Assembly: GCF_053078305.1 (NCBI RefSeq)
Contig: NZ_CP166879.1
Reading direction: 5' to 3' (one strand)
Length of the DNA stretch: 64,000 nucleotides
The notes beneath the pieces are model-generated. The model was not told where the DNA came from and did no database searches. It worked only from the letters and a program-made list of their open reading frames with translations. The translations under genes were made by a program, and so were the position numbers. Shown piece after piece: positions 22,463 to 63,119 of the stretch. Position 1 is the first letter of the stretch; each line of letters starts with the position of its first letter.

Positions 22463-22732
<270 letters not shown>

Positions 22733-22937
22733 TTACCGTTAAATTATTTTAAAATCAGTAAGTTGTATCGAGTTTGTATGCTTTACAGTTATTAACTTAC
22801 TGTATGTTGATCCAGTGTATTTAACCTTGATAAACTCAGTCCAGCAACACAAAACCGCAACACATTGCATTTTGTCCCGTAGAAAAGACTTGTATGTGTG
22901 AGCTTGTTTTCTGCGCCTACGCAGATAAGGATTGAGA

Positions 22938-24335
22938 ATGCCGCGCACTGTAACACATAATCCGGATAGCCCCAATAATGACGATGTTTTAGCCGCATCT
23001 GAAAAATGGGACGCCTGTAAACCCCCCTATACCAGCGCACACATAAAAATCTGTGTTGCTGCCGCCAAAATCATCCTCGCAGCTTCCGGCGTGGCTCGCC
23101 GTTCCAAATACGAAAAAGAGAACTATCTCCGTATCGATTTCAGCAAAGCCGGTAAGGTTACATTTTACGCCGAGTTTCCAAAAAAGATGGGCCTCAAGGG
23201 TAAAAAGCTCGGCGAGTGGCCGGAGCTCGCTATCCAGCTGGCGCGCGAAAAAGCGCTAGGTATGGCTGACTGTGGCTTGCGGGCAGAGTCCGTACATGCA
23301 GCGCTGGAAATGTACCGGGATGACCTCAAAGCCAAAGTCGCCCGGCAGAAGCTGAGCCCGGACAGTTTCACAACCTACGGGGTGCGTATCGACCGGATTA
23401 AAGCAACGTTCGGCGAGCGTGAGGTGTTCAGCGACGTAACATACAATCGGCTAGTGGAAGTGCTGGACGAGTGGATCGCCACTCGCTCGAACAATAACGC
23501 CCTGGAGTTGTTTGCCGAGCTCCGTCGGTTCTGGAAGTTCTGCGCACCTACTCTTTGTAACGGTCGCAATGTTGCTGCCAGTCTGCCAGATGATTATGTT
23601 TCCTCCCGCGTACAGAAACCCACCCCCACACGGCTTTTTACCGATATTGAGTCAATCGCCCGGCTCTGGCTCAATGTTGCCGCCTGCACCTCTGTACACC
23701 AGAAGAATGCTGTTCGCTTCATGATCATCACCGGCGTTCGTCCGATTAATGTCCATAACCTGCGCTGGGACTACGTTCACGAGGAGACTGGCGAAATTGT
23801 TTATCCTGAAGGGGTTATCGGCATGCGAGGGGCTATGAAAACACAAAAGGCTTTCCGCCTGCCAATAACGCCGGAGATCCGGCGGATTATCGACGAGCAG
23901 AAAGCATGGCGTGATTCAGTTCCTGAGTGCAACAGGGATTATGTATTTTTGCAGCCGCGTGATCCAATGCAGCCATTTTCAAAACGATCACTGGATAAGC
24001 TAGTGAAAACATACAGCCCGGATGGGGCTGTAAAAGGATTAAAACATGATGGGACTGTTAAAGGGAAAGACGGTGCATTTAATACGATGTGCCGTAAATT
24101 CCTTAAGAGCAATGTTATTGCCTTGATGAAGGAAAGAGGCTATTCCCGATCAGACCGAAGGGAAATCAGCCTCCTTTGCCTTCACCACTCCAGCAAGTCA
24201 GATGACCCGATGGCAGAACATTACGACTTTTCTGATGAGATTTTGCAGGAAGAGATTGCGTTAAAGCGCGAAGCTTTCGAGGCTCACGAGCGGAGCATAC
24301 TTGCGCAGGTGGCATTGCTACGGCGGCGAGGTTAA
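22938..24335 (+). CDS. int: Phage integrase, tyrosine recombinase family
   Basis: Adjacent to attL; C-terminal region with R...H..R...Y-type catalytic signature (ITGVRP..., LHHSSKSD..., AEHY); ATG at 22938 preceded by aagga. Confidence 0.8.
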   Translation: MPRTVTHNPDSPNNDDVLAASEKWDACKPPYTSAHIKICVAAAKIILAASGVARRSKYEKENYLRIDFSKAGKVTFYAEFPKKMGLKGKKLGEWPELAIQLAREKALGMADCGLRAESVHAALEMYRDDLKAKVARQKLSPDSFTTYGVRIDRIKATFGEREVFSDVTYNRLVEVLDEWIATRSNNNALELFAELRRFWKFCAPTLCNGRNVAASLPDDYVSSRVQKPTPTRLFTDIESIARLWLNVAACTSVHQKNAVRFMIITGVRPINVHNLRWDYVHEETGEIVYPEGVIGMRGAMKTQKAFRLPITPEIRRIIDEQKAWRDSVPECNRDYVFLQPRDPMQPFSKRSLDKLVKTYSPDGAVKGLKHDGTVKGKDGAFNTMCRKFLKSNVIALMKERGYSRSDRREISLLCLHHSSKSDDPMAEHYDFSDEILQEEIALKREAFEAHERSILAQVALLRRRG

Positions 24336-24532
24336 TACCGGCTGCGACACTTTTGAATAAAAGCGTCGACATTGCGGCGCTCATAACGAACTACTTTTGC
24401 ACTGAAACGAATTGGTGCCAGGATAGCCCGATGACGATGCTTAATATTCCACTCACATAGCGTTTTCTGTGTAATACCTAACTTTTGGCATACTTCATCC
24501 GGGGTGAGTAAATCGTCGGGTTTCTCGCTCAT
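24332..24532 (-). CDS. AlpA-like HTH DNA-binding protein (putative excisionase/regulator)
   Basis: 66 aa, LLTPDEVCQKLGITQKTLCEWN helix-turn-helix; next to integrase. Confidence 0.6.
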   Translation of the reverse strand: MSEKPDDLLTPDEVCQKLGITQKTLCEWNIKHRHRAILAPIRFSAKVVRYERRNVDAFIQKCRSRY

Positions 24533-25923
24533 GCTATACCTCTCTTTTTCATGGCATCGAGCAGGATGTCCTGCACTGTTCGTTTTGAGTTGCGCCGCTC
24601 CATCACCATTTCGTCCATAGTGTCGGCAGCAATAATGTGGTGAATAAATACCGGACGATTGTGTCCGGCTTGTATCTGCCTGGTGGGGCCGATACGTTCA
24701 ATAATTTGCTGATATTGCTCCAGGTCCCACCAGTGTGAGAAAAATACCAGTATATTTCCGCCGTCTTGCATGTTCAGGCCGTGGCCCGCGCTGGCTGGGT
24801 GTGCAAAGAGAACAGGAATCTTTCCGGAATTCCAGTCGCGCAGTGTCTGTGGATCCTGGTCGAGGTGACGACCGCGAGGGAATGCTTTAAGCAAGCGTTC
24901 AAGATCGTGTTTCCAGTGATAAGCAACCAGCACAGGTGCGCCAGCTGCTTCGGCCAGTATGCTGTCCAGCGCCTGTAGTTTGGTGTCATGCAGTTCTGAC
25001 CAACTTCCGGTGTCGTCTGTGTATACTGCGCCACTGGCGATTTGAAGACACTTCAGTGTCTTTGCCGCGGCGTTCGGTGCTTCGATGCCTTCGCCATTCA
25101 GCTCGAGGAACATTTCCTTTTCCATTTCACGATACTGCTGACGGGCCTTCGGGGGCATATCCACGCGGATTACGTTATGGATGGGGTCTTTGATATCGAA
25201 CCAGTCGGCCGCATCCAGCGAGAGGGTCACATCGGCTAACGCTCGCTGTATTTCACCCTGTGAGTGAGCAAAAGGCTCCAGTTTGGTCCAGCTCTGCCCC
25301 GGAAACTGTATCGATTTGAACCAGCGTGAGGTAAATGCGCCGTAAGTGCGCCCGAGACGTTGCCCCAGGTCCACAAACCACGATTGTCCCCACAAATCTA
25401 CCAGGCCGTTCGGTGCTGGCGTACCGGTGAGATTTATCCAGCGCCGGACATACTTGTGCGCCACTTTGCCCAGCGCCGCCGCGCGCTTACCACCACCTCG
25501 CAGCCGGAAGGATTTTAGCCGGGTGCTTTCATCTGGAATGACAGTACCGAACGGCCATCGTTCTCCCAATTCCTCAACCAGCCAGACAAGGTTATCGTAG
25601 TTGATGGTGAACACGCTCGCGTTGTTGTTCGCCAACGCTGCAGAGCGCGCTTTGGCATTACCAACAATTGGTTGTACCTCGATATTGCGCAAATGCCCCC
25701 ACTTCAGTGCTTCATCCGGCCAGGTGTTTGCTGCAACGCGTAGCGGCGCGAGGACCAGCGCGGGGCGTGTTTCTGCTCCAGCCATGAAAAGATCTTCCAG
25801 CGTGGTGAGTGTCGCTACGGTTTTACCCATCCCCATCCCTGCCCAGATGTTGCCGCGCAGAATGTCGGTTTGGTGATTGATTATGAGGTTTTGATAAAGT
25901 CGGGGGTGGAATATGTTATTCAT
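24529..25923 (-). CDS. Superfamily-2 (SNF2/DEAD-like) helicase
   Basis: GMGKTVATL Walker A, DEST(R) motif II, C-terminal helicase domain; start placed at MNNIFHPRLYQ (ORF extends to 25998). Confidence 0.7.
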   Translation of the reverse strand: MNNIFHPRLYQNLIINHQTDILRGNIWAGMGMGKTVATLTTLEDLFMAGAETRPALVLAPLRVAANTWPDEALKWGHLRNIEVQPIVGNAKARSAALANNNASVFTINYDNLVWLVEELGERWPFGTVIPDESTRLKSFRLRGGGKRAAALGKVAHKYVRRWINLTGTPAPNGLVDLWGQSWFVDLGQRLGRTYGAFTSRWFKSIQFPGQSWTKLEPFAHSQGEIQRALADVTLSLDAADWFDIKDPIHNVIRVDMPPKARQQYREMEKEMFLELNGEGIEAPNAAAKTLKCLQIASGAVYTDDTGSWSELHDTKLQALDSILAEAAGAPVLVAYHWKHDLERLLKAFPRGRHLDQDPQTLRDWNSGKIPVLFAHPASAGHGLNMQDGGNILVFFSHWWDLEQYQQIIERIGPTRQIQAGHNRPVFIHHIIAADTMDEMVMERRNSKRTVQDILLDAMKKRGIA

Positions 25924-25985
25924 TAATACACCTATGGTAGAATATGTGTCAATTCTCTCTCTATATATAACTAACGGAGGCGGGT

Positions 25986-26783
25986 ATGCCCCTGGCAAAA
26001 ATACTTACAAAACAAGTTTCTTTATTAACTGTTTTTTCAGCGTTAGCTTATGTGATGGCATATTCTTTTCAGAAAGGTGTTGCATCGTATTATGGCTATC
26101 CAGCCCTTTTTATTAAAATAGATTTAAATACGCTATTGTATTCGGCTGTATGGCTTTTGTTTTTTAGTTTTTTATTTCTCGGTGCCTTATACGCGACATT
26201 GATGTTTGATTTGAAAGGGAAATATTATGTTCCATTTATTATATTTATAGTGGTTATGCTAATACCTAATTTTTACATAATAGGATTCCATTGGCCTTTT
26301 GGTTATTTCTCAGAAACCTCTGTGATGAGTGTTGGAGATATTTTATTATTTGCTCTGCTTTTGTTGAATTACCACAATGCGGTGTCCGCGTCAATCCATA
26401 GTAAGAGACACGAACATCATATGGATAGCATTAGAAAATTTGGGAGGCTTGCAGAGTATAAAGACGTATTTTATTATATCGATTTAAAAATCCTAAAATC
26501 AGCTTTTCCTTTAGGGGTGATGACATTATTGATATTGAGCTATACCTTCGGGAAGGTTACTGCATTTAAAAATAACGAATATTATATGGTAGATGGTAGT
26601 AATACTAAAGTGTTGCTCAATTCATTTGGTAGTGGTTTTGTTGTTGGTGATTGTGAGTCCAATAGCGCAAAATTTGAATTTGTTAATGATTTAAAAGGGA
26701 TGAAATTCACAGTCATGTCCTCTAAAAAGGAAATAGCTAAATTAAAAGAGTGTTTCGAAACACGTGTTAAAAATACGGATTAA
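25986..26783 (+). CDS. AT-rich multi-pass membrane protein of unknown function (cargo)
   Basis: 265 aa, at least four hydrophobic helices; strongly AT-rich codon usage versus neighbours; ggagg RBS 6 nt upstream; extended -10 TGgTAGAAT at 25945..25953. Confidence 0.5.
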   Translation: MPLAKILTKQVSLLTVFSALAYVMAYSFQKGVASYYGYPALFIKIDLNTLLYSAVWLLFFSFLFLGALYATLMFDLKGKYYVPFIIFIVVMLIPNFYIIGFHWPFGYFSETSVMSVGDILLFALLLLNYHNAVSASIHSKRHEHHMDSIRKFGRLAEYKDVFYYIDLKILKSAFPLGVMTLLILSYTFGKVTAFKNNEYYMVDGSNTKVLLNSFGSGFVVGDCESNSAKFEFVNDLKGMKFTVMSSKKEIAKLKECFETRVKNTD

Positions 26784-26795
26784 AGTATAAGTCTT

Positions 26796-27083
26796 TTATC
26801 TTTTATTGCGGCTTAAAATAATTTCCTCCAGATTTTTGCTATCCAGCACCACCACGGTAAAGCCCAGCTCGCGCAGCCGCTTGTGCTCGCGCAACTGGTC
26901 GGCGCGTGGTGCTTTGCCGGGTGCTTTGCATTCAACGAAAACAAGACGGCCGCCGGGTAGCAGAACAATGCGATCCGGTACCGAGCGGCGACCAGGTGAT
27001 ATGAACTTAAAGGCGACCCCACCAGCCTTTTTCACTTCGGCGACGAGATGCTTCTCGATTAGGTTTTCACGTTCATATATCAT
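26796..27083 (-). CDS. VRR-NUC domain nuclease
   Basis: 95 aa with PD-(D/E)xK-like DRIVLLP...VFVECK motif typical of VRR-NUC; commonly partnered with phage SF2 helicases. Confidence 0.7.
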   Translation of the reverse strand: MIYERENLIEKHLVAEVKKAGGVAFKFISPGRRSVPDRIVLLPGGRLVFVECKAPGKAPRADQLREHKRLRELGFTVVVLDSKNLEEIILSRNKR

Positions 27084-27125
27084 ATGACGTTTCCTTTAGC
27101 CCTCTAGTTTGAGGGCTGGGAATCT

Positions 27126-27677
27126 TTAGCGACGGCTGGGATGAATTTTTTCACGGAGAACTAAGGTTAGTTGTTCTAGTGTCAATGGCTCGCCAAAATT
27201 CTCATGAAATAATGGATTGAATACATGCATCATGCGTTCGTATGTTGCCAGCGAAGGCGTGTGAGAATTAAGATCTCTTAATTTGAATTCTTCAAATCTA
27301 TCCAGTTTATTGATGACGAAATCAGCGGCTGCAAGATACTCAGTTTCGTTATTTCCATCGAATCCTTTGAATATTGGATTTTTTCCAAATAACTCAACAT
27401 TTTCTTTTAACTTCTTTTTTTCTTCTTCTGTAAGTTCACTGTAGCTATATTCAATAACTCTCCACATATCTAGGATGTCTAGAACTTTTTTTACAACACG
27501 TGGAGTTTCGGTATTTTTAAATGGAATACCACTAAATTTCCAAGGGAGTGCCCATGTTTGGTTTTCGAATATAGCATCACGGACAAATGTGTGATCGATT
27601 TCGCCTTCAATCTCGTTTTTATCGTACAGGTCACACAGCATCATTAGAATTAGTTTTTCGCCATCTGAAAGTTGCAT
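27126..27677 (-). CDS. YfbU-family (UPF0304)-like protein, function unknown (cargo)
   Basis: 183 aa; blocks M.LSDGEKLILMML, VKKVLDILDMW, FKGFDGNNETEYL...RFEEF and YERMMHVF resemble E. coli YfbU as recalled from memory; AT-rich. Confidence 0.45.
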   Translation of the reverse strand: MQLSDGEKLILMMLCDLYDKNEIEGEIDHTFVRDAIFENQTWALPWKFSGIPFKNTETPRVVKKVLDILDMWRVIEYSYSELTEEEKKKLKENVELFGKNPIFKGFDGNNETEYLAAADFVINKLDRFEEFKLRDLNSHTPSLATYERMMHVFNPLFHENFGEPLTLEQLTLVLREKIHPSRR

Positions 27678-27682
27678 GTTTT

Positions 27683-28192
27683 TTATCCTTGAGTGTTAAA
27701 CGTTAAATCATCAACGAGTAGATCTATGTGAGGTTGAATAGCCAATATTTTTGCATGCAAAACTCTACCTGTTCTTAACTTTTCCGCAGGAGTTTTTGCA
27801 TCTGAAAGCTCAGAAATATTTTCCCTTATTTCAGCACAAAAATTTTCTGAGTCTATGCTCAATTTTACTTTATTGTTAGGTTTTATTGCTTGGGCTGCAA
27901 ATAAATCGATGAAATCCTCTATTTCAGAAATTATTGGTTCTAAACTTATGCCTCGAACATTTTCCTCATTCGAACCAGGACCAATTGCTCTTAGAGATTT
28001 TATGGCGGTTGATAACTTTCCATGAAGGTTGCCTGCGTCCCTTATACTACGTTGATAATTGACCGTAGCTAAAGCCTTTTGAGCTTCTGTGGCGGCATCC
28101 CGCGACTTTTTCCACCCCCATAGTGAACACATAGCACCAACTATGGTAACAAAAGTACCTATCCTTGATAGCCAGACATCTGTATTTTCCAT
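27683..28192 (-). CDS. Membrane-anchored protein of unknown function (cargo, upstream partner of the YfbU-like gene)
   Basis: 169 aa, single N-terminal TM helix (WLSRIGTFVTIVGAMCSLWGW) then soluble domain; 5-bp gap to downstream gene; AT-rich. Confidence 0.45.
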   Translation of the reverse strand: MENTDVWLSRIGTFVTIVGAMCSLWGWKKSRDAATEAQKALATVNYQRSIRDAGNLHGKLSTAIKSLRAIGPGSNEENVRGISLEPIISEIEDFIDLFAAQAIKPNNKVKLSIDSENFCAEIRENISELSDAKTPAEKLRTGRVLHAKILAIQPHIDLLVDDLTFNTQG

Positions 28193-28277
28193 TAAAGCAC
28201 CAAAAACAATCTGTTAAGGATAGCTATATGATACATATATCTTCAATGATGTCATGTATCTGATTTGTGAGCTGTGA

Positions 28278-30341
28278 TCAGTCCTTACGGTAGTGGTACG
28301 CCTCAAAACCGCCAGCGTTCAGTGGGATATCGGGCGCCCATTCGGGGTTAGTGGAGAGAAGCGCGGAAAGCGCTTTATCGTTGAAATCTTCTGTGTCAGG
28401 TGCTTCGGTGATCACCTCGTCGTGTACCGTCAGCACAATGCTGTAACCGGCATCTTCGATAAGCGGCATGTTTCCGGCCAGAACGTCGCGGGCGGCCGCT
28501 TGGGTGACGTTCTCCACCAGCTTTCCGCCGTAGGTTTTGAGTCGTTGCCATTTACGTGAATAAGAGTTAACACCCATATAGGTGATATTCCCTTTTTCGA
28601 TAATCGGAGACGGGTAGCATACAGCGCGTCCAGATGGCAGCTGTATGCGCAGCCACGCGCCATCACGTCGGATTTTAAGATAGCCGCAATACAATGTTTT
28701 TTGCGGTGTGGCGATTGCAGTGCGGACGGTGCGCTCCAGTTCGTACCAGAAATCACAGGTCGCGGGATGCGCCCGGCGCCAGAGACGTTTAAGTGAGTCG
28801 CAGGCGATAAATACCCGTTCAGAAAGCCCGTAGGTTGACTTGCGTTTAACCGATTCGTCGTACCAGCTTTTCGCCTCGCGGATAACATCGCGGGGAATGT
28901 TTGGTAGTGCGGCGTTCGCCAGCTCGTCGAGATCGAGACCGTAAACCAGTGCAAAAGTGATGAAGGCCGACACACCACCACCATAACCCAGACCGAGTTC
29001 CATGACTTTACCGATCTGACGCATGTGTTTATCAACATCATCTGGTGCAATATCGAAAGCTTTTGCATACGCCAGTTTATATAAGTCCGGACCCGTTCCG
29101 GCGTCGTACTCTCTGAATGCATTCAGTTTCCATTCTTCTCCCGCCAGCCATGCCAGCATACGGCCTTCAATGTTCGACAAGTCACTTACCACCAGCTTTT
29201 TGCCTGTTGGCGCGATAATGCAGCCACGTAACGCTGAACTGGTTAGTTCCATGATATTGTCAAACAGCAGGTCTGCACATCCGGCTTTCAGTGCTTCGAT
29301 GCCTTCGTCTATTTGTTCCTGTTTTAGTGAAGGGCGGGGAAGGTTCTGGGGCTGGAATAGCCGTCCGGCCCAACGACCGGTACGTGACGCCCCGCAGAAC
29401 TGTAGCGTACCGCGTAAGCGCCCGTCGTGGCTTACGCCTTTCATCAGTGCCTTGTATTTACTGGTGCTGGTAGTACTGGCCTGCAGGCGGATAGCCAGCA
29501 GTTCTTTCACGGCAGATGGTAAATCGGGGTCGGCAATACGACGTTCCAGAGTACTGCGTTGCATGTCTGGTAGCTCCACACCGTAGGATTCAACAATGTG
29601 CTTAATCAACGCGTCTCGTTGTGTGGCTGCCTGCACTTCGCCATCAGTCATTTCCTGTGTACGCTTTGCCAGGCGCTTTTGTTCCTGGTCTACCGCGTCG
29701 ATCGCAGCGCGTGCGAGTTCCACGTCCATGCAGACGCCCCGGTCATTGATCTGCTGATCACGATGCCAGAGCGCCAGTTCTGTCCCCTGATAATTCCACT
29801 TCGGCAGACGTTTATAGACTTCGCGCATTGCCTCGATATCCAGTCCGGCGTAAGCAACAAAGCGCCGCCATTCTTCCGGGTGGGTTTTGCTGGTGGCCCG
29901 GCGCAGTTTGCTGTTTTTCGGGCGTGGCTTACAGAACAGCTGGATCAGCGCTTTACCTTCTTTGTCCTTCGCTTTGTCTTGCGGGACGCCTAGTACTTCG
30001 CAGAGTTCCCCCAGAGACCCCGGGAGACCGTGCGCCAGCGCCTGCACCATTGTGTCGCGCCAACGTTCGACTGGCGGTGCCAGGCGCGGCATTGCATAAC
30101 GCAGAACGGTGCGGTCGAAGTGAGAGTTATGGAAATAAAGCAGGGTTTCAGGGTCTGCGATTGCTTCGTATAAGCCGTGTGGAATACCACCACCGGCAGT
30201 GATATCCCACACGTTTACTGGCCCGTCGTTGATAGCCCATGCGAAAAGCATCACTTCAACGCCTTCGGCATACGCATGGGTACCGTTCGTAATAGGGATT
30301 TCGCAATAGGTTTCCAGGTCGCCCCATAGTATATTGGACAT
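28278..30341 (-). CDS. Family-A (Pol I-like) DNA polymerase
   Basis: 687 aa; motif B-like [16 protein letters not shown] and motif C-like [12 protein letters not shown]-terminal region consistent with a 3'-5' exonuclease domain. Confidence 0.72.
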
Positions 30342-30387
30342 GTGTTTACCTTGGTTTTTATTCTATTAACTGATTAAAAGATTAATT

Positions 30388-31017
30388 ATGCATATGATCC
30401 AATACTTGATTGACCATACAGAGCATCTGGAGAAAATAGCTGGATATATTTTTTCATGTTTGATTGTTATGGGAGTCTGGATAAGAAAGATCATTTTTAA
30501 TTATAAGTATAAAGAGCCTAAATATGTCAAGAAGTTAATTTTATATTTAGTTAAGTATGAACGTTATCTGGATGAGGAGGATAAGAGTGCCATAGAAAAA
30601 AGAATAAATGATAAAATTATTCGTGATGCGCTGAAATTGCAATCCTCTTATAACCGAAGAGATGTTATTTACATTTGCAATAGATTAGAAAAAAGACAGT
30701 ATATAAATCAGTTGATTAAGCTTCAGAATTATATAGAGAAAGATAACGGAGTGTTTTTTATTAATGTTGATTTTTCAGGTTTTTTATTTATTATTAGTCG
30801 TCTGTTTTCCTTTCTGTGTTTTGTGCTGTTTACCCTTTTTTCTATTATCTGCATTATTTCCATAGGGCAAAATGAAGGCCTTTTAAATTATCTTGTGTAT
30901 ATGGTTATGATAATAGTTTTAGAGACTGTTGGTTTTTGGATGTATGATACTTTCCCGTCTAAGAAAAAGATCTGTGAACTAAATAAAGAATTGAGAAAGA
31001 TTAAGATTCCTGAGTGA
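30388..31017 (+). CDS. AT-rich membrane protein of unknown function (cargo)
   Basis: 209 aa, one N-terminal and two C-terminal hydrophobic helices, K/E-rich middle; very AT-rich; divergent from polymerase gene. Confidence 0.5.
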   Translation: MHMIQYLIDHTEHLEKIAGYIFSCLIVMGVWIRKIIFNYKYKEPKYVKKLILYLVKYERYLDEEDKSAIEKRINDKIIRDALKLQSSYNRRDVIYICNRLEKRQYINQLIKLQNYIEKDNGVFFINVDFSGFLFIISRLFSFLCFVLFTLFSIICIISIGQNEGLLNYLVYMVMIIVLETVGFWMYDTFPSKKKICELNKELRKIKIPE

Positions 31018-31033
31018 TTATACGCCTAATCAG

Positions 31034-31058
31034 TAGCCCGGTGTTTAACCGGGCGTCT
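31034..31058. terminator. Hairpin between convergent genes
   Basis: gcccggt-gttta-accgggc 7-bp stem; no strong U-tract. Confidence 0.35.
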
Positions 31059-31069
31059 ATGAAGTAGGG

Positions 31070-31618
31070 TTAAATTAGTGCTTCAGCATCAGCACCTTCG
31101 CTGATATCGTCGAAATCGTCAGCGCTTGCCACTCCGCCGCCAGCGAATGCATCGCCGTCTCGCAGGAACTGGACTCCGCCGAGTGAGGCATTAATGCGTT
31201 TACCGAAATTATTGTCCTGTGCCCAGATATCGATAACGGCGTTTACATAGCACCCTGCATAGGGACGTCCGTCAGCCTGAATAAGTGGCGAACGATCGCG
31301 ATCAAGAACAGCTGGGCGCGCTTTGTTAGCAGCATTCAGGAAGAAATTACCGGGGAAGCCTTCATACTCTGCTTTTTCATCACCATCATGCAGGCACAGA
31401 TTGAGTTTTTTCTCCAGCTGGTTATAAATGGGCTCCCACTTCTCTCCCCATTTTTCCTTCGCTACCTGCTTCATAGCTTTACGGATTTCTTCCAGTTGTG
31501 GGTGTTTGGGAGACATTAAAAATACTGCGGAGAAACGCGGATCGCCTTCGCCGTTTACAGTTTTAGCTTCAAACAGAGACGGGAAGGCCAGACGAACATT
31601 GTTCAGCTTCAGTTTCAT
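31070..31618 (-). CDS. Putative phage ssDNA-binding protein (DUF2815-like)
   Basis: 182 aa with acidic C-terminal tail (DDFDDISEGADAEALI) typical of SSB-like proteins; co-occurs with the downstream nuclease in phage replication modules. Confidence 0.55.
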   Translation of the reverse strand: MKLKLNNVRLAFPSLFEAKTVNGEGDPRFSAVFLMSPKHPQLEEIRKAMKQVAKEKWGEKWEPIYNQLEKKLNLCLHDGDEKAEYEGFPGNFFLNAANKARPAVLDRDRSPLIQADGRPYAGCYVNAVIDIWAQDNNFGKRINASLGGVQFLRDGDAFAGGGVASADDFDDISEGADAEALI

Positions 31619-31633
31619 GGGTATTTCCTTAAA

Positions 31634-32935
31634 TCAGATGAGGTCTGCGGTTAGCGTATCGTCGGATACGTCGTCGAAATCATTTACAGGGTTGATATTG
31701 AGTGCGGGGCGTGGGTCTGACTCGGGAACGACGGTTGGTTTACCATCAGCTCGTGTTATCAGTGCCTCGACTTTTGACCAACGGCGTGGACTGGCCTTTT
31801 TGATAAGTTTTTCGGCTTTTGTGGGACTAATAAGTTTAAAGTCGAATACTTCTTCAGTTTTGTACCTGAACTGGTCCTTCAGAAGTGCGCGAGCTGCCTC
31901 TTCATCACTCCAGGCCCGGTTACCTTGTTTTCCTGTTACCAGTTTAAACCCCGGTACCGGATGTCCGGCATTGAGTTCATTGTGAACCCGGTCCCGTACT
32001 GCCTTTAGCCAGGATTCAATAAAGTCGGCCTGGCTATAGATCTCCGCAAGCTGCTCAATGGTTAACAGAGGTACACGTGCGCTGGCATTGGTGATTATTT
32101 CGCTGACAGGCTTTGTCAGATCTTCAAAATCGCTGGCCGCTGTTTGTAAATGCTGCATTTTCTGGGCAGTGCAAATAGCTTTTGCTTTACAGAAGCGGCA
32201 CTGTTTTTCTCCAGGTATGAAGTTTTCCAGCGGTAGTGTCTCAATGCCTTCGCATTCAGCAATATTGAGAACAAGGATCGCACTGGTTGCGGCCTCCTGT
32301 GCCCGTTCACCGAAAGACTGAAGTTCCTGTACGGTTAACGACCATTCTGAAACGTGGTTGAGCCTTGGCTGGTGAATAAATAATCTTACAGTCTCAAAGT
32401 CATACAGCATGCTGAATTGTTCGAGCGCACCCAGAGCATACAGTTGTAGTTGCTCATTTTGTTCTGCATCAATGCGGACGCCTTTGCCATATTTCAGGTC
32501 GTGGATTTGTAATTCGTTACCAGCGATGATTATGCCGTCGGCAGTTCCGAAAGATTCTTCCACCCCCGTTATATGTGAGAAATCAACACGTTGTTCAACC
32601 AATAGTTCATTATTCTGTGCAAGAGTCCAGACCGTATCAACATACCGGCCAACGGCTTCGACCATTTCATCATCCACCTGTGGGCCAGATGTATCATCAG
32701 GATTTTCGCGAAGGGGGTATGAGCCGAGAAACATAGAAACATTGCATCCGGCGTAGTGTTCCGGGTGGCTTTGCCTGTTTCGTAGAACTTTTTCAGCAAG
32801 CGCGTGCGCTGCAGTGCCCTCGATTGCAAAAGTTGTTTCTTTATCCGGTTGTGTGGCCTCCAGCGCCAGACTTCCTGGGCAGCGCATCCATCGATGCGCT
32901 GATGATGGAGAAAGTTGTGCATGAACGTCTGGCAT
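31634..32935 (-). CDS. PD-(D/E)XK nuclease, Cas4/RecB-like (DUF2800-like)
   Basis: 433 aa; C-terminal cysteine cluster [10 protein letters not shown] plus additional Cys residues resembling a Cas4-type Fe-S motif. Confidence 0.6.
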
Positions 32936-32937
32936 GA

Positions 32938-33840
32938 TTAACCCTCCAGTGCTTTTTCAGCCAGGGTGATTACTTCAGCGAGATTTTCATCCGTTACTTC
33001 ACCAAGTTTCCTGGCTCCCTGTTTTTCCAGAATTGCAATAGCTTCTGCCCGGTAACCCCCTTTTGCTAACTGGAGGATCAACCCTTCAGCTTGTTTGCGT
33101 AGTGCCGCGAAATCAATTGTATGGTCATCTTTGGCGTCATTATTCTGGCTGGAATTTGCTGCGTCTCTGCGTGCAAATTCTTCCTGCAGCTGAAGGTACT
33201 CAACACGGTTGATCTCGATATGGCCTTTTTTAAGCATCTCGTTCAACTTGCGTAAGGTGTGGAGTTCACTGGCTGCTGTGCCGGATACATTTTTGACGTA
33301 AAACGGCCCCGTGCGTTCTCCATCTTTGTTACTGGCCTTTTTCGGCTTAACTTCATCACGCCCATCTGCAGGTGCATCAAGTAGTTGCTCGGCAAAAGCA
33401 CGTCGCTCGCCGATGGTTGGCAGGTCGTCCCAGAACTTAAGAATGTTACGGGACAGGTCCAGAAGAGCGGGTTTATGCAGTGCCCTGGCTCGTTTGACGC
33501 CCTGCAATGCGCTGTCGAGAGCATCAATCTGAACTACTCGTTTATCGCCTTCAGCATCACGGTAGGCAACAGCACGTTGCAGCATGTCTTCTGTGATAGG
33601 GGTGGCTACCGGGTAGAAACCAGCCAGTGCGATAACGTCGCTGAACTCCAGATCATCCAGTGTCATTGCCGCTGACATATTTTCAGTTTCAGTTGCTGTA
33701 TCCCGACATTCCTGCACTCGTGAAATCGTGTCAGGATGCATAACAATACCTGATGCCATTGTGCGGATAAGACGTTCAAGCAGCGCATTATGTTGTGCCA
33801 GAAGTTGATTATTAAGTTCGAGACTGGTTTCTAAACTCAT
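32938..33840 (-). CDS. Hypothetical protein (replication module)
   Basis: 300 aa ORF, stop overlaps start of downstream gene; no recognisable motif. Confidence 0.45.
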
Positions 33841-33986: not shown

Positions 33987-34102
33987 CGGTTGTATTCCTT
34001 TTTTCATATCGGGGAGCGCGCTGTTGCGAGTGCGCTTTCAGACATAAAAAAGCCCGTCACTTGCGGCGGGCAAAGACTACACACAGCAATTACATGGATG
34101 AT

Positions 34103-34297
34103 TCAGTTGGTATTGTGCGTACGTGGTACCACAAGGTTGAAGCGGACACGCCAGTGCGTTGCAATGGTATGCAGGAAAGCACCACATCCAGGGCAGTGCT
34201 CATAACATTCGTTGATTTGGTATCGTTTTGGCTTTGGTGTCTGAAGCTGTGTTTGGCAAGCAGGGCATTCACCTTTGAGCGGTTTATATGTTTTCAC
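34103..34297 (-). CDS. Small Cys-rich putative zinc-finger protein
   Basis: 64 aa with CPAC...C..HCPGC arrangement; weak support. Confidence 0.3.
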   Translation of the reverse strand: MKTYKPLKGECPACQTQLQTPKPKRYQINECYEHCPGCGAFLHTIATHWRVRFNLVVPRTHNTN

Positions 34298-34576
34298 GCC
34301 GTTTCCTCATTCAGTTCACTTTGGTGGTTCGGCGGCTTCGACTTGTATCAGTAGGCAGTGCTTCGCCGCACCCCAAAGGGAACTTACTGACCCGTATTGC
34401 CGACATCCTGTCCCGCCACGGTCCCGACGCATGGTTTAGAGTCGCGCCGTTCGACTTGTGGCTAAAGATACAATTTGAGTTGTATTGTGTAAACCACAAA
34501 CGTGGTATTTTGTGGGGTGTGAATACTACTTTATTGATATTTAAGTGAATTTAATTTGTAAGACTTTACAAATGGG

Positions 34577-34600
34577 GTAAGGGAGGCTGTTACGCCTCCC
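34577..34600 (-). terminator. Hairpin downstream of repressor gene
   Basis: gggaggc-tgttac-gcctccc 7-bp stem directly 3' of the cI-like gene on the minus strand. Confidence 0.4.
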
Positions 34601-34619
34601 GATATTTACGGTGGGAATA

Positions 34620-35243
34620 CTAACGTTTACGGCGGTAAATACGGTGTTCGATCATTACACCTATGATCTGTAAGTTCATATCTGCACTACGAAAAATAGG
34701 GTAATCAGGATTTAGGGGGATTAATTCAAAGTCGTCGATGCCGATTCCTAATGGACGGTATTTTTTAAATGTAGCTTCGTGACCGTCGTTTTTGGCGACA
34801 ACAAACTCCCCTGGTGCAGGACATAGTTCAGGATCGATGATAACAATGTCTCCTTCTTTAAACTCTGGTTGCATGCTGTCGCCATCAATACGTAATGCGA
34901 AGCATGTTTCTGGAATGTCAGAGTCTGCCAAAATATATTCAAATTCCCCTGTCAGATCTGTTATGTCTCTTGCTTCTGTAAGCTCTCCTGCCTGAACGTA
35001 ACTTAATATAGGTATGCGTCTGGTACTTATCTCCGCGAGAGGCATAATATTTTTACCGTTCAGTAGCCAGTCTGGGCTACATTTCAAGGCCTTAGCCAGA
35101 TCCAGAAGATTGCGTGGCTTTCTGGTTCGTCCACTTTCGATGGATTCTATGGATTGTTGGCTAACCCCTGCAGAATTCGCTACTTCCACTTGAGTCATTC
35201 CTAATTCCAAACGACGTGCTTTAAAACGGGCTGCGAGAGACAT
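34620..35243 (-). CDS. cI-like prophage repressor (HTH_XRE plus S24 LexA-like peptidase)
   Basis: N-terminal HTH (LGMTQVEVANSAGVSQQSIESIESG) and C-terminal GDSM...K catalytic dyad; start at MSLAARF. Confidence 0.85.
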   Translation of the reverse strand: MSLAARFKARRLELGMTQVEVANSAGVSQQSIESIESGRTRKPRNLLDLAKALKCSPDWLLNGKNIMPLAEISTRRIPILSYVQAGELTEARDITDLTGEFEYILADSDIPETCFALRIDGDSMQPEFKEGDIVIIDPELCPAPGEFVVAKNDGHEATFKKYRPLGIGIDDFELIPLNPDYPIFRSADMNLQIIGVMIEHRIYRRKR

Positions 35244-35363
35244 GGGATTAGTCCTTCTGGGTTGTATTAATGTGTATACCCACATTAAAAACAATTTTTG
35301 TTGTATTTGACAAACCTCATTTGTTGTTGCTAAATACCACTAAAATTGTATGAGGTGAAAGCA
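35244..35363. promoter_or_regulatory. Divergent repressor/cro control region with operator palindrome
   Basis: Perfect 8-bp inverted repeat ttaatgtg-N6-cacattaa at 35267..35288; TTGACA at 35307..35312 and TAAATA at 35331..35336 oriented toward cro. Confidence 0.5.
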
Positions 35364-35576
35364 ATGACCTTAGCGACCCGAGTAAAAGAACGACGTAAAG
35401 AACTCAAAATGACGCAAGTTACGTTGGCTGAGCTCACAGGAGTGAGCCAGCAGGCAATAAACAGAATTGAAAGTGGTGTTATTGCTCGGCCACGTTATCT
35501 TCTTGAAATGTCTATAGCATTGGATTGCGACCCTAATTGGCTGTTGTATGGCTCACAAAACGATAAAAAGGCTTAA
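35364..35576 (+). CDS. Cro-like HTH regulator
   Basis: MTLATRVKERRKELKMTQVTLAELTGVSQQAINRIESG; gaggtga RBS before ATG at 35364. Confidence 0.7.
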   Translation: MTLATRVKERRKELKMTQVTLAELTGVSQQAINRIESGVIARPRYLLEMSIALDCDPNWLLYGSQNDKKA

Positions 35577-35579
35577 CCC

Positions 35580-37772
35580 ATGTCCGATAGCAAACCATGG
35601 GGAGCTACGCCTGATGAGTGGTTTCATTTCGACCTGGTATTGGGGAGAACTGATCATCTTCTCCCAGTTGTATGTAACCCCGGTGCGACCATATCCCCTG
35701 ATAGTAAACTGAAAGCGCTGGGTAAGACGCCAAGTCGCTATAACCGGGACCGCCAGGTCACCGGTATTGCTCAATGGACCGGGTATGTTGTTACTGAGCA
35801 TGATTTTGCCCGCTGGTCGAATGAACCGGATTATGGCATCTGCGTGCGTACAGGCCATGGCTGGCTGGCGCTGGACGGCGATAGCGAAGATGAAGACATT
35901 CAGGCAGATATTCGCAAAACGCTTGTGCAACTTCTGGGGGAGTTGCCGCCGCGACGCTGGCGAGCAAACAGTAATAAGTGTCTGTATCTGCTGGCCGTTG
36001 ATGGTGATTTCCGTAAGCGTATCCATCGCCTGGCGGGGGATATGGGCATTATCGAGTTGCTGGCGAACGGGCAGCAGTTCGTTGCCTGTGGTACGCACAG
36101 CAGCGGCGCGCGTATTGAATGGGACGGTGGTTTGCCGGATGAACCTCCGGCTATTACTGGTGAGCAGCTTGAAACGCTGTGGCAGCGCCTGGCTGAACAA
36201 CTCCCTGTGTCGGTAACCACCGAAGCGGGCAACACGAAGATGCGCGACCGATCAGCATTCACGCCCGGCGCGACGGATGATACAGCTGAATATCTTGATG
36301 CCAATGGCTGGACGCTGCTGGATGGCGCAAATGGTGAACGATATATCCGCTGTCCGTTTGAAGACGGCCACAGTAGCGGGGGCGATCCAACAAGCACAGC
36401 TTATTTTCCTGCGGGAACCGCGGGCTTTGAGCAGGGGCATTTTAAATGCCTGCATGCCAGTTGTGCGCATCGTGATGACGGAGATTTCCTTAATGCCATC
36501 GGGATCCGCAACGACGATTTCGAAGATCTGACCAGCACCGAAGTGGCGGAACCTTTACCGCTGCCTGCTTTCGAGCGTGATAAATGGGGGCGTATCGAGG
36601 CAACCATCAGCAACGCAGCCAAAGCAGTAGTACGCCCTGATTTTGTGGACATCGATATTCGCTTTGACCAGTTCCGCGACGAAATCATGTTTGCCTCTGC
36701 AGGATCCGGACAATGGCGAGCATTCACCGATGCGGATTATGCGCGCCTGCGCATCACGATGGAAAAGCGGGGATTTAAACCTGTTGGTCGTGAACTTATT
36801 CGCGATGTGGTGTTACTTGCAGCCGATGAACAACCATTCGATTCAGCGATTACCTGGCTGAACGGGCTGGAGTGGGATGGCGTGCCGCGCATCGAATGTT
36901 TCTACCATACGCACTTCGGTACAGCCGACACGCCTTATACCCGTGCGGTGTCTATGTACATGTGGACCGCGTTGGCGGGGCGAGTACTGGAGCCAGGCAT
37001 CAAAGCGGATATGGTGCCGATCCTCGTTGGTCCGCAGGGCTGCGGTAAGTCTTCCGGAGTGGAGGCACTGAGCCCTGATCCTGCGTTTTTTACTGAAATC
37101 TCTTTTGCCGAAAAAGACGATGATCTCGCTCGAAAAATGCGTGGTCGGCTGGTGGCAGAGATTGGTGAACTGCGCGGACTTAATACCAAAGAGCTGGAGT
37201 CAATCAAAGCGTTTGTGACGCGTACTCACGAAAACTGGATCCCGAAATACCGGGAGTTCGCCACCCAGTTTCCTCGTCGCCTGGTGTTCGTTGGTACCAC
37301 CAATGAGGACGAATTCCTTGCGGACAAGACTGGTAACCGTCGCTGGCTCCCCGTGGAAGTGTCGAAAGTCGACGTGAAAGCGATAAAAAGAGATCTCCTT
37401 TTACTTTGGGCTGAGGCTCGTGAGGTGTTTCAGCGTCTGGGGGGTATCCAGTTCCGTGAGGCTGAACAACTGGCAGCGAGTGTCCATGAACAGTACACCA
37501 TCAAGGATGCTTGGCTTGAAACGGTAGAGAAATGGCTCGACACGCCAGACCTGATGACTAATGAACTTCCGCGAAATTGCGAATTTTTACGCGCAAGTGA
37601 TGTTTTGCGTGATGCGATTGGGCTAAATCCTGACCGCATCGGAAAACGCGAAGAAATGCGAATTAGTAATGTTTTGCAAAATTGCGGGTATAAGCGTGTC
37701 CAAAGGCGAATTGGGGGGAAAATGACTCGAATTTTTGAGGCGGTGTCCCAACCTGTACCAGCCTCAAAATAG
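35580..37772 (+). CDS. Phage replication primase-helicase (primase domain plus D5/VirE-like P-loop NTPase)
   Basis: 730 aa; Walker A GPQGCGKSS and downstream motif LVFVGTTNE; Cys/His cluster (CLHASCAH) in N-terminal half. Confidence 0.72.
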   Translation: MSDSKPWGATPDEWFHFDLVLGRTDHLLPVVCNPGATISPDSKLKALGKTPSRYNRDRQVTGIAQWTGYVVTEHDFARWSNEPDYGICVRTGHGWLALDGDSEDEDIQADIRKTLVQLLGELPPRRWRANSNKCLYLLAVDGDFRKRIHRLAGDMGIIELLANGQQFVACGTHSSGARIEWDGGLPDEPPAITGEQLETLWQRLAEQLPVSVTTEAGNTKMRDRSAFTPGATDDTAEYLDANGWTLLDGANGERYIRCPFEDGHSSGGDPTSTAYFPAGTAGFEQGHFKCLHASCAHRDDGDFLNAIGIRNDDFEDLTSTEVAEPLPLPAFERDKWGRIEATISNAAKAVVRPDFVDIDIRFDQFRDEIMFASAGSGQWRAFTDADYARLRITMEKRGFKPVGRELIRDVVLLAADEQPFDSAITWLNGLEWDGVPRIECFYHTHFGTADTPYTRAVSMYMWTALAGRVLEPGIKADMVPILVGPQGCGKSSGVEALSPDPAFFTEISFAEKDDDLARKMRGRLVAEIGELRGLNTKELESIKAFVTRTHENWIPKYREFATQFPRRLVFVGTTNEDEFLADKTGNRRWLPVEVSKVDVKAIKRDLLLLWAEAREVFQRLGGIQFREAEQLAASVHEQYTIKDAWLETVEKWLDTPDLMTNELPRNCEFLRASDVLRDAIGLNPDRIGKREEMRISNVLQNCGYKRVQRRIGGKMTRIFEAVSQPVPASK

Positions 37773-63062: not shown

Positions 63063-63119
63063 TTATTTGATTTCACACATATCACAATTGATGCATTTTT
63101 TAGTGATTAACAGCGCCAT
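63063..63119 (-). pseudogene. yfhL: Remnant of original yfhL 5' end (19 codons) at attR
   Basis: Minus-strand ATG at 63119 encodes [18 protein letters not shown] then stop; first 16 residues match YfhL N-terminus; diverges at the att core. Confidence 0.6.
63072..63089. repeat. attR core (18-bp direct repeat)
   Basis: ttcacacatatcacaatt identical to 22676..22693. Confidence 0.6.

Follow-up and report, generated by a model that had tools for sequence, protein, structure and literature searches.

Early region of a temperate Escherichia coli prophage with a BPP-1/APSE-type replication and recombination module

Here, we analysed a stretch of 64,000 nucleotides from contig NZ_CP166879.1 (NCBI RefSeq assembly GCF_053078305.1), referred to below as the window, which is a part of the E. 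coli chromosome carrying a prophage of about 40.4 kb. An original prediction, made from the letters alone, had drawn attention to the interval 24529-33840 as a replication module unusual for a temperate phage. We consider it highly probable that this interval belongs to the early region of an intact, temperate and probably SOS-inducible E. coli myovirus, and that the module is of a widespread replication and recombination type, best known from phages BPP-1 and APSE. Temperate phages that encode a family A polymerase along with this accessory set form a documented and common class; in the terms in which the question was posed, the finding changes little. Less expected are two other features of the region, namely a likely origin of replication that adjoins the primase gene, and a number of foreign genes, probably serving defence, that lie among those for replication.

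The replication module and its relatives

All proteins which the original prediction had named in this interval, i.e., a helicase, a VRR-NUC nuclease, a family A DNA polymerase, a single-stranded DNA-binding protein (SSB) and a Cas4-like nuclease, are encoded there on the minus strand, as confirmed by profile and PDB matches, and the primase-helicase expected beyond the immunity region is also present (PF09250, PF05272). The positions of all features are collected in Table 1. An identically ordered set has been on record for about twenty-five years from temperate phages, APSE-1 and BPP-1 among them, and it is hence an ordinary one. According to annotations and tblastn, the window shares with BPP-1 (bbp29-bbp50), APSE-1 (P38-P53), YeP4 and Xfas53 the order and orientation of the genes, i.e., int, xis, helicase, nuclease, polymerase, SSB, DUF2800 nuclease and cI, followed on the other side by cro and the primase gene. 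The identity of the proteins of these four phages to those of the window is 57-74% for the polymerase (PolA), 57-74% for the SNF2 helicase, 55-66% for the SSB and 44-59% for the DUF2800 nuclease. Integrase and repressor genes are present in the records of all four, and YeP4 and Xfas53 also have the structure of iterons and AT-rich DNA that follows the primase gene in the window. The likeness has its limits: the integrase, CI, Cro and Q of the window are not detectably or only weakly related to those of the four phages, the primases of BPP-1 and Xfas53 match that of the window only in part, and the four cargo genes of the window are missing from all of them. Moreover, these phages are podoviruses with virions of the BPP-1 or P22 type, whereas the prophage in the window encodes a contractile tail.

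Of 5,426 complete E. coli genomes, 158 have a match to the 9.3-kb interval, always in the chromosome and with core genes at about 98% identity; further matches are three GenBank records named 'Escherichia phage vB_EcoM' (polymerase 98%). A homologue of the polymerase is encoded in 1,727 of 50,697 phage records. Beyond vB_EcoM, the closest polymerases are those of Yersinia phages YeP4-6 (74%), Bordetella phages BPP-1, BMP-1 and BIP-1 (68%) and Hamiltonella phage APSE (61-65%), together with those of Acinetobacter phage 4316 (64%), Burkholderia phage BcepC6B (57%) and Xylella phage Xfas53 (57%). More distant phages retain the set as well. Collinearity of the five leftward genes extends to the virulent Salmonella phage Jersey (30-50% identity), and in the temperate Staphylococcus aureus Triavirus phiSa2wa all leftward genes but the SSB gene are detectable by tblastn (32-38%). 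As in the window, genes for a Cas4-like nuclease, a DUF2815 protein and PolA are adjacent in phiSa2wa, and a VirE/VapE primase-helicase, a VRR-NUC protein and an SNF2 protein occur in the same phage; the arrangement differs in that all of them lie on a single strand downstream of the immunity region, with the primase-helicase gene between those of PolA and VRR-NUC.

The catalytic residues checked in the core proteins are all in place. In the polymerase, an alignment to Taq polymerase and six phage homologues showed that the exonuclease motifs (ExoI D8/E10, ExoII N72/F75, ExoIII Y164/D168) and the polymerase motifs (A, D387/E392; B, R441/K445/L449; C, H640/D641/E642) are kept, and that there is no 5' nuclease domain. 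L449 occupies motif-B position 762 (B3), where leucine is invariant in the window polymerase and the six homologues. The SNF2 helicase, whose open reading frame (ORF) would reach 25998 if started from an upstream TTG, matches the Snf2/Rad54 cores in PDB; its Walker A residues G30/G32/K33 together with DE 130-131, TP 167-168 and Q405/R409 are invariant in seven phages. Its PADLOC matches to DpdE and ZorD reflect generic SNF2 similarity and do not speak for a role in defence. The small nuclease scored 14.7 bits with Pfam VRR_NUC, below the cut-off of 23.8 bits, and its residues D37, E51 and K53 are invariant (seven phages). Its PDB match 4QBO, like 4QBN, is a stand-alone VRR-NUC dimer described by Pennell et al. 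2014; these dimers reportedly are Holliday-junction resolvases. In the DUF2800 nuclease, the Cas4-like cysteines C19, C246, C249 and C255 are invariant along with D133, D146-L-K148 and Q162/Y166 (seven phages); a direct PDB sequence search with this protein gave nothing meaningful. The SSB gene begins 16 nt past the DUF2800 gene, and its product, which matches PDB entries 4JG2, 5ODJ and 4KLK, is 100% identical in six related prophages.

Judged by its sequence, the module thus is a member of the BPP-1/APSE type: the DUF2800 nuclease, the gp2.5-like SSB, the polymerase with leucine at B3, the VRR-NUC nuclease, the SNF2 helicase and the collinear order are all found. This 'duf2800-gp2.5-polA module' was named by Steczkiewicz et al. 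2021 for Firmicutes phages, and they noted that phages of Gram-negative bacteria have the genes in the same context (PMC8093625). Polymerases with Leu762 occur mainly in temperate phages, next to RecB-like and SNF2-like genes (Nasko et al., PMC6302109), and the Leu-B3 clusters of phages and prophages include SPO2-like and KPP25-like ones (Czernecki et al. 2023, PMC10201439). With the same set in order in BPP-1, APSE-1, YeP4 and Xfas53, its counterparts in Jersey-like and S. aureus phages, and a name already given to it, the module cannot be called unusually complete, as had been claimed.

In function, the inventory equals that of T7 (gp4, gp5, gp2.5, gp6 and gp3), with a primase-helicase, a proofreading family A polymerase, a gp2.5-type SSB, an exonuclease and a junction-resolving endonuclease, although most parts are not orthologous. 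The SSB family is common to both (phrog_112). The T7 primase-helicase combines TOPRIM with a DnaB-like helicase, whereas that of the window combines an archaeo-eukaryotic primase (AEP) Prim-Pol with a VapE helicase like that of the Rep proteins of S. aureus pathogenicity islands (SaPIs); the exonuclease is FEN-like in T7 and Cas4-like here, and endonuclease I of T7 stands against the VRR-NUC protein. Position 762 is Tyr in the T7 polymerase and Leu in that of the window, in which no thioredoxin-binding domain was identified. The window element has an SNF2 helicase in addition and, unlike T7, is temperate.

It could be that the leftward genes serve mainly recombination and repair. In that case host Pol III, brought in by the primase-helicase, would carry out the bulk of phage DNA synthesis, and the family A polymerase would fill gaps or restart forks. 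Neither a clamp, a clamp loader nor a thioredoxin-binding insertion was identified, Taq polymerase became slower but more accurate with the Leu762 change (work cited in PMC6302109), and the DUF2800, gp2.5-like, VRR-NUC and SNF2 families all have recombination-type activities. On the other hand, the same polymerase is the only one of the virulent, 43-kb Jersey-like phages, its proofreading domain is intact, and it is as strongly constrained as the primase-helicase. While none of these three observations is decisive, we regard such a division of labour as improbable.

Still less probable, in our opinion, is that a lambdoid or Mu-like temperate phage recently captured the replisome of a lytic phage and became an unusual hybrid. 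Homologues of the same genes are carried by virulent Jersey-like and Chi-like phages, most classical lambdoid phages are generally known to lack a polymerase, and the late region is that of a myovirus, unlike those of the closest early-region relatives. However, the virulent homologues are more distant (PolA 40%, as compared to 57-74% for the temperate YeP4, BPP-1, APSE and Xfas53), the synteny with temperate phages runs through int, xis, cI, cro and the primase gene, the polymerase bears the Leu762 signature, and the GC content of the core genes (0.49-0.54) fits that of the rest of the prophage (0.49). By these comparisons, the replisome is an heirloom of temperate phages and not a lytic import. 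The suggested union of a lytic-style replisome with lambdoid regulation therefore does not hold, since for every replisome gene the nearest relatives belong to temperate phages, in which the stretch from int to cI/cro and primase is arranged identically. The genome is nevertheless a mosaic, as had been proposed, with podovirus-like relatives in the early part and myovirus genes in the late part. In APSE, early genes like those of BPP-1, Bcep, Xfas53 and YeP4 ('Bordetella-Bcep-Xylella-like') are joined to P22-like late genes (Boyd et al., PMC8579659). This precedent, together with podovirus relatives on one side and a myovirus late region on the other, places the junction between the early and the virion modules, and not between replisome and regulation.

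As to integrity, the comparison with five related E. coli prophages showed core genes that are ungapped and free of internal stops, with ratios of non-synonymous to synonymous substitution rates (dN/dS) of 0.04-0.14 (0.05-0.08 for the polymerase, 0.07-0.12 for the SNF2 helicase). No frameshifts or lost catalytic motifs were found in the motif alignments, and every core ORF in the window is of full length; the replication module is intact, and the check for decay which had been proposed for it came out in its favour. That the module is a decaying, non-functional remnant in a cryptic prophage is very unlikely: some members of the family are indeed decaying, with an IS1 insertion splitting the DUF2800 gene in strain XH993 (locus L006, 8510-10588), frameshifted accessory genes elsewhere (Dcm and ANR, loci L007 and L010) and, in a Citrobacter-like locus, an SNF2 gene that is cut short, but the window copy combines its full-length, constrained core genes with attachment (att) repeats and genes for lysis, packaging, head and tail.

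Five genes in the interval had gone unmentioned in the original prediction, namely four cargo genes of low GC content, described below, and a gene for a conserved 300-aa protein. The latter is under purifying selection (dN/dS 0.04-0.11) and belongs to a very small family, with 69 relatives among 1.84 billion representatives. Its C-terminal 60 residues are common to APSE-1 P53 and to the YeP4 protein at the matching position, and the three-helix bundle at its C-terminus is likewise common to P53. AlphaFold2 (AF2) gave a confident model, yet a fold search with it returned no informative match. We also considered an origin inside this gene, by analogy to lambda O and to the 'VR2' repeat of BPP-1 bbp36, and rejected it, as the gene is devoid of tandem or clustered repeats; the protein is unrelated to Bbp36.

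A candidate origin and a proposed course of replication

No O-like or P-like replication genes, of the kind that depends on host DnaB and Pol III, were found in the prophage, and their position is taken by the gene for the Prim-Pol/VapE protein, whose homologues are named 'bifunctional DNA primase/polymerase'. For the helicase part (residues 384-657), the sole PDB sequence match was 7PDS (E=7e-34), the complex of SaPI1 Rep1 with DNA (Qiao et al. 2022, PMC9371898). SaPI Rep proteins are self-loading initiator-helicases, the C-terminal winged helix of which binds iterons directly downstream of the rep ORF; these iterons have opposite orientations and are separated by an AT-rich region (PMC9371898).

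A layout exactly like this follows the initiator gene of the window. The candidate origin begins at the stop codon and overlaps the 3' end of the gene: two iteron-like copies lie in the gene itself, within its final 30 nt, and an inverted one comes right after. Next, there is an AT-rich stretch, after which GTACCAAC(T/C) occurs three times in direct orientation at a period of 9 nt, and then the core ACCCCATATATATATATAAGTCG followed by three inverted copies with a 10-nt period. In the 64-kb window CTGTACCA is matched 8 times, as compared to 1.28 expected, and five of these eight matches fall within 172 bp at the origin; none of 100 shuffled windows reached 8 matches. By its likeness to the SaPI origins, 37743-37925 is likely the replication origin of the phage. 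The helicase domains are homologous, and PriRep5 of SaPI5 is a primase-helicase fusion, as is the initiator of the window. There are also differences: a SaPI is a satellite, while the element in the window is a complete phage that encodes a polymerase; SaPI iterons are 5-6 bp long, as opposed to 9-10 bp; and the C-terminal DNA-binding domain of SaPI Rep has in the window a predicted counterpart, with the sequence alignment to Rep covering the helicase part.

Eight further related loci show this architecture with iterons of other sequence, which makes nine in all, with six iteron types. The iteron is GGAACCAC at CB9615, GGTGACGG at vB_EcoM-606R2, GGAACCACC at a Sodalis contig, TGTA(T/A)CCAC at a Salmonella salamae contig and TGTCCCAAC at a metagenomic contig, while TAGACAACC is found both at YeP4 and at an Enterobacter hormaechei contig. 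Xfas53 has two copies of the structure, with different repeats in each. When the window is aligned with CB9615, there are no differences in the flanks or in the AT-rich core, and all copies of the iteron are changed in the same manner. The two initiators have five differences before residue 715 and are wholly different after it, i.e., in the last 15 residues.

In the AF2 model, the C-terminus of the initiator forms three consecutive helices followed by a beta-hairpin (pLDDT 86-92). A conserved Gly-Lys turn is followed by three residues that fall in the second hairpin strand of the modelled wing and sort with the iteron type, in four classes over seven loci. MTR or M-R goes with GT(A/C)CCAAC, KCK or KAK with GGAACCAC, QQR with TAGACAACC, and VLK with GTA(T/A)CCAC. 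Three of the four classes recur in proteins that are only 65-86% identical elsewhere, and the putative recognition helix REEMRISNVLQNCGY is nearly constant across the loci. Our hypothesis, built on the structure model, is that iteron specificity is linked to the wing of the initiator. Together with the predicted origin, the natural variants of iteron and wing offer a ready-made specificity series.

From what is known of these protein families, and by analogy, we infer the following course of replication. Cleavage of the CI-like repressor would allow the rightward operon to produce the Prim-Pol/VapE protein, which, as SaPI Rep does, would bind through its C-terminal winged helix to the iterons downstream of its own gene, melt the AT-rich core, load itself as a helicase and lay primers. 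The primers would be extended by the proofreading family A polymerase, and the gp2.5-like protein would coat and anneal single-stranded DNA. The Cas4-like DUF2800 nuclease may resect ends for annealing-driven recombination and the formation of concatemers, the VRR-NUC nuclease may resolve branched DNA ahead of packaging, and the SNF2 helicase may remodel forks or branches.

Several points weigh against this account. The roles given to the SNF2 helicase, the VRR-NUC nuclease and the DUF2800 protein are borrowed from their families, and no processivity factor was identified. The winged helix of the initiator is predicted from topology, and a Foldseek search with the C-terminal model returned winged-helix domains only, the best with an E-value of 0.024 and none with E<=0.001. 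No iteron structure is recognisable after the primase gene of BPP-1. The scan for promoters and terminators did not rise above chance (21 found, 16.8 expected). Finally, host genes are included in the GenBank vB_EcoM 'phage' records, which may have been predicted and not obtained from induced phages; a literature search on the vB_EcoM-606R2 records found no paper, and no experiment on this prophage family was found.

The family of BPP-1/APSE-type early regions gains a member in E. coli, the most tractable host, where the polymerase, the initiator and the origin could be tested genetically. We found no dissection of the replication of this family in the literature.

Cargo slots inside the operon

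Three intergenic slots of the leftward operon hold four cargo genes with a GC content of 0.29-0.38, as opposed to 0.49-0.54 in the core genes. No homologues of these four genes were detected by tblastn in six comparator phages. Likewise, PADLOC had no models for the four proteins (the models, of 2023, do not cover Kamadhenu). Among the 158 related E. coli prophages, the alleles in the slots vary. Slot A, between the helicase and the nuclease genes, holds the window allele in 16 of the 158; elsewhere it holds a Dcm methyltransferase, Rha with Arc, DUF6338, a protein which RefSeq names 'BstA C-terminal domain' or 'PI-PLC domain', or nothing. The window allele of slot B, between the nuclease and the polymerase genes, occurs in 4 genomes, and the alternatives are a TIR-domain protein, an ATP-binding protein, an S-adenosylmethionine (SAM) methyltransferase, and DUF4406 or DUF7446 with an ANR regulator. 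In slot C, between the polymerase and the SSB genes, the window allele is present in 66 of the 158, and Nmad5, Ant/BRO-N or HNH proteins are encoded elsewhere.

The low GC content of the slot A and slot C genes and their orientation opposite to the replication operon make them look like morons. The slot A protein is without a Pfam, PHROG, NCBIfam or PADLOC match, and for both membrane proteins a role in superinfection exclusion or defence is possible. Slot B has two genes. The YfbU-family protein scores under the NCBIfam equivalog cut-off for the chromosomal YfbU. The 169-aa protein is a rare one, with 7 clusters among 5.8 billion proteins. In E. coli, in Morganella, in a Citrobacter-like contig and in a metagenomic island, the YfbU gene is always preceded by a partner gene for a protein of 149-169 aa, at a distance of 4-8 nt. 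The cassette lies between icd and the integrase gene of an unrelated lambdoid prophage in Morganella, adjoins AAA_23/MC2/CTD6 genes in the metagenomic integrative island, and occupies the same slot in a decayed relative, with genes of the MksBEF type and a BrxR-like gene beside it. In the window, the best sigma-70-like match of the region (28255-28228) is located directly upstream of the cassette, which can be taken as a hint only.

Kamadhenu, a YfbU-domain protein, is a validated resistance of the abortive-infection type in Lactococcus (Grafakou et al. 2024, PMC11381338). It has 180 aa and is encoded on lactococcal plasmids, and the slot B protein is likewise a YfbU-domain protein (183 aa) of a mobile element; Kamadhenu acts as a single gene, whereas the slot B gene always has its partner, and the two are likened by description and not by sequence. 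From these associations, the slot B cassette is probably a mobile two-gene anti-phage system. For the cargo as a whole, expression in the lysogen is probable, and so is a role in defence against phages or in exclusion. The slots point to a candidate two-gene YfbU system. As a hot spot within an essential operon, they join the prophage sites at which defence genes are exchanged.

Rather tentatively, we put forward two proposals: the origin and the specificity determinant of the initiator may form a single swappable cassette, and the three slots may be sites of defence-gene exchange, with the slot B pair as a not yet described two-gene relative of Kamadhenu. If the first were true, related prophages sharing one cell could keep separate replicons. 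It was also observed that some genomes (e.g., E. coli STEC383, NZ_CP091026.1) match the module at two places, which suggests two related prophages in one cell, where differing types of iteron and initiator would matter.

Prophage boundaries, regulation and late region

The prophage is bounded by 18-bp direct repeats, which are the longest exact match between its two ends, and is integrated between yfhL and yfhH; the same fixed yfhL site is used in the 158 genomes. On the left, the flank of the syntenic locus in O55:H7 CB9615 reads rnc-era-recO-pdxJ-acpS-shoB-yfhL. No tRNA gene is present at the integration site. The gene for the Xis-like protein occupies the excisionase position of BPP-1, APSE-1 and Xfas53. 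Regulation has lambdoid features, namely divergent genes for CI-like and Cro-like proteins, Q ahead of the lysis and late genes, and a lambda-family holin. The 51-bp spacer between cI and cro contains an inverted repeat of 23 nt (35291-35349), 83% complementary and with a 13-nt spacer, which is likely an operator.

The late region encodes a large terminase, a portal, a head-morphogenesis protein, a major head protein, a tail sheath, a tape measure, a baseplate hub and baseplate J; with contractile-tail genes such as those for the sheath, tape measure and baseplate, the prophage encodes a myovirus. The description of its tail as Mu-like is fair for structural genes, where the resemblance to Mu-type parts is limited to head-morphogenesis and baseplate proteins, but it does not extend to Mu-type transposition: the phage has a tyrosine integrase and the fixed yfhL site, and no transposase gene was found among the ORFs examined between the att sites.

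Table 1. Features of the prophage and its early region in the window (positions of the whole stretch; L numbers denote loci used for comparison)
Feature	Position	Strand	Remarks
Putative attL core	22676-22693	.	TTCACACATATCACAATT
Tyrosine integrase	22932-24335	+	PF00589 E=5.5e-7; RefSeq 'tyrosine-type recombinase/integrase' at matching position
Xis-like helix-turn-helix (HTH) protein, 66 aa	24332-24532	-	PF12728 HTH_17 E=1.3e-5, slightly under Pfam cut-off
SNF2-family superfamily 2 (SF2) helicase, 463 aa from ATG	24529-25920	-	PF00176 E=1.7e-12; phrog_62 E=3e-154
Slot A, multi-pass membrane protein, 265 aa	25986-26783	+	Opposite to operon; GC 0.33
Stand-alone VRR-NUC-type PD-(D/E)XK nuclease, 95 aa	26796-27083	-	phrog_93 E=1e-29; PDB 4QBO E=7e-15
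Slot B cassette	27126-28192	-	Also L014 8001-9069, L016 8001-9065, L018 8001-9007
Slot B gene 2, YfbU-family protein, 183 aa	27126-27677	-	GC 0.36; PF03887 E=5e-21, residues 1-171
Slot B gene 1, 169-aa protein	27683-28192	-	Hydrophobic N-terminus; GC 0.38
Family A DNA polymerase with 3'-5' exonuclease domain, 687 aa	28278-30341	-	PF00476; phrog_17 E=6e-127
Slot C, membrane protein, 209 aa	30388-31017	+	Opposite to operon; four transmembrane segments; GC 0.29; phrog_10579 E=3e-108, function not known
gp2.5/Enc34-type single-stranded DNA-binding and annealing protein (DUF2815)	31070-31618	-	PF10991 E=7.6e-44; phrog_112
DUF2800 Cas4-like PD-(D/E)XK exonuclease	31634-32935	-	PF10926 E=3.8e-110; PF12705
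Conserved 300-aa protein	32938-33840	-	phrog_6784; head of leftward operon, directly upstream of DUF2800 gene
56-aa ORF			Between 300-aa gene and CI-like repressor gene
CI-like repressor, HTH and S24 autopeptidase	34620-35294	-	PF01381, PF00717
Cro-like HTH protein	35346-35576	+	PF01381 E=2e-14
Initiator/primase-helicase: AEP Prim-Pol, Cys/His cluster, VapE helicase, predicted C-terminal winged helix	35580-37772	+	PF09250 E=4.8e-9; PF05272 E=2.3e-60
Candidate replication origin	37743-37925	.	CTGTACCA(A/G)C iterons around AT-rich core ACCCCATATATATATATAAGTCG
Q-type antiterminator	38054-38476	+	PF06530 E=5e-42; late region begins
Putative attR	63072-63089		Copy identical to attL core

The 612 bp from the 56-aa ORF to the repressor gene (34008-34619) are without an ORF of at least 100 aa. 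At the equivalent position, strains XH993 and O103:H2 129 have a gene on the opposite strand for a protein of 174-189 aa (L006 11864-12433 and L009 11657-12181), and this stretch may be a fourth cargo slot, empty in the window.

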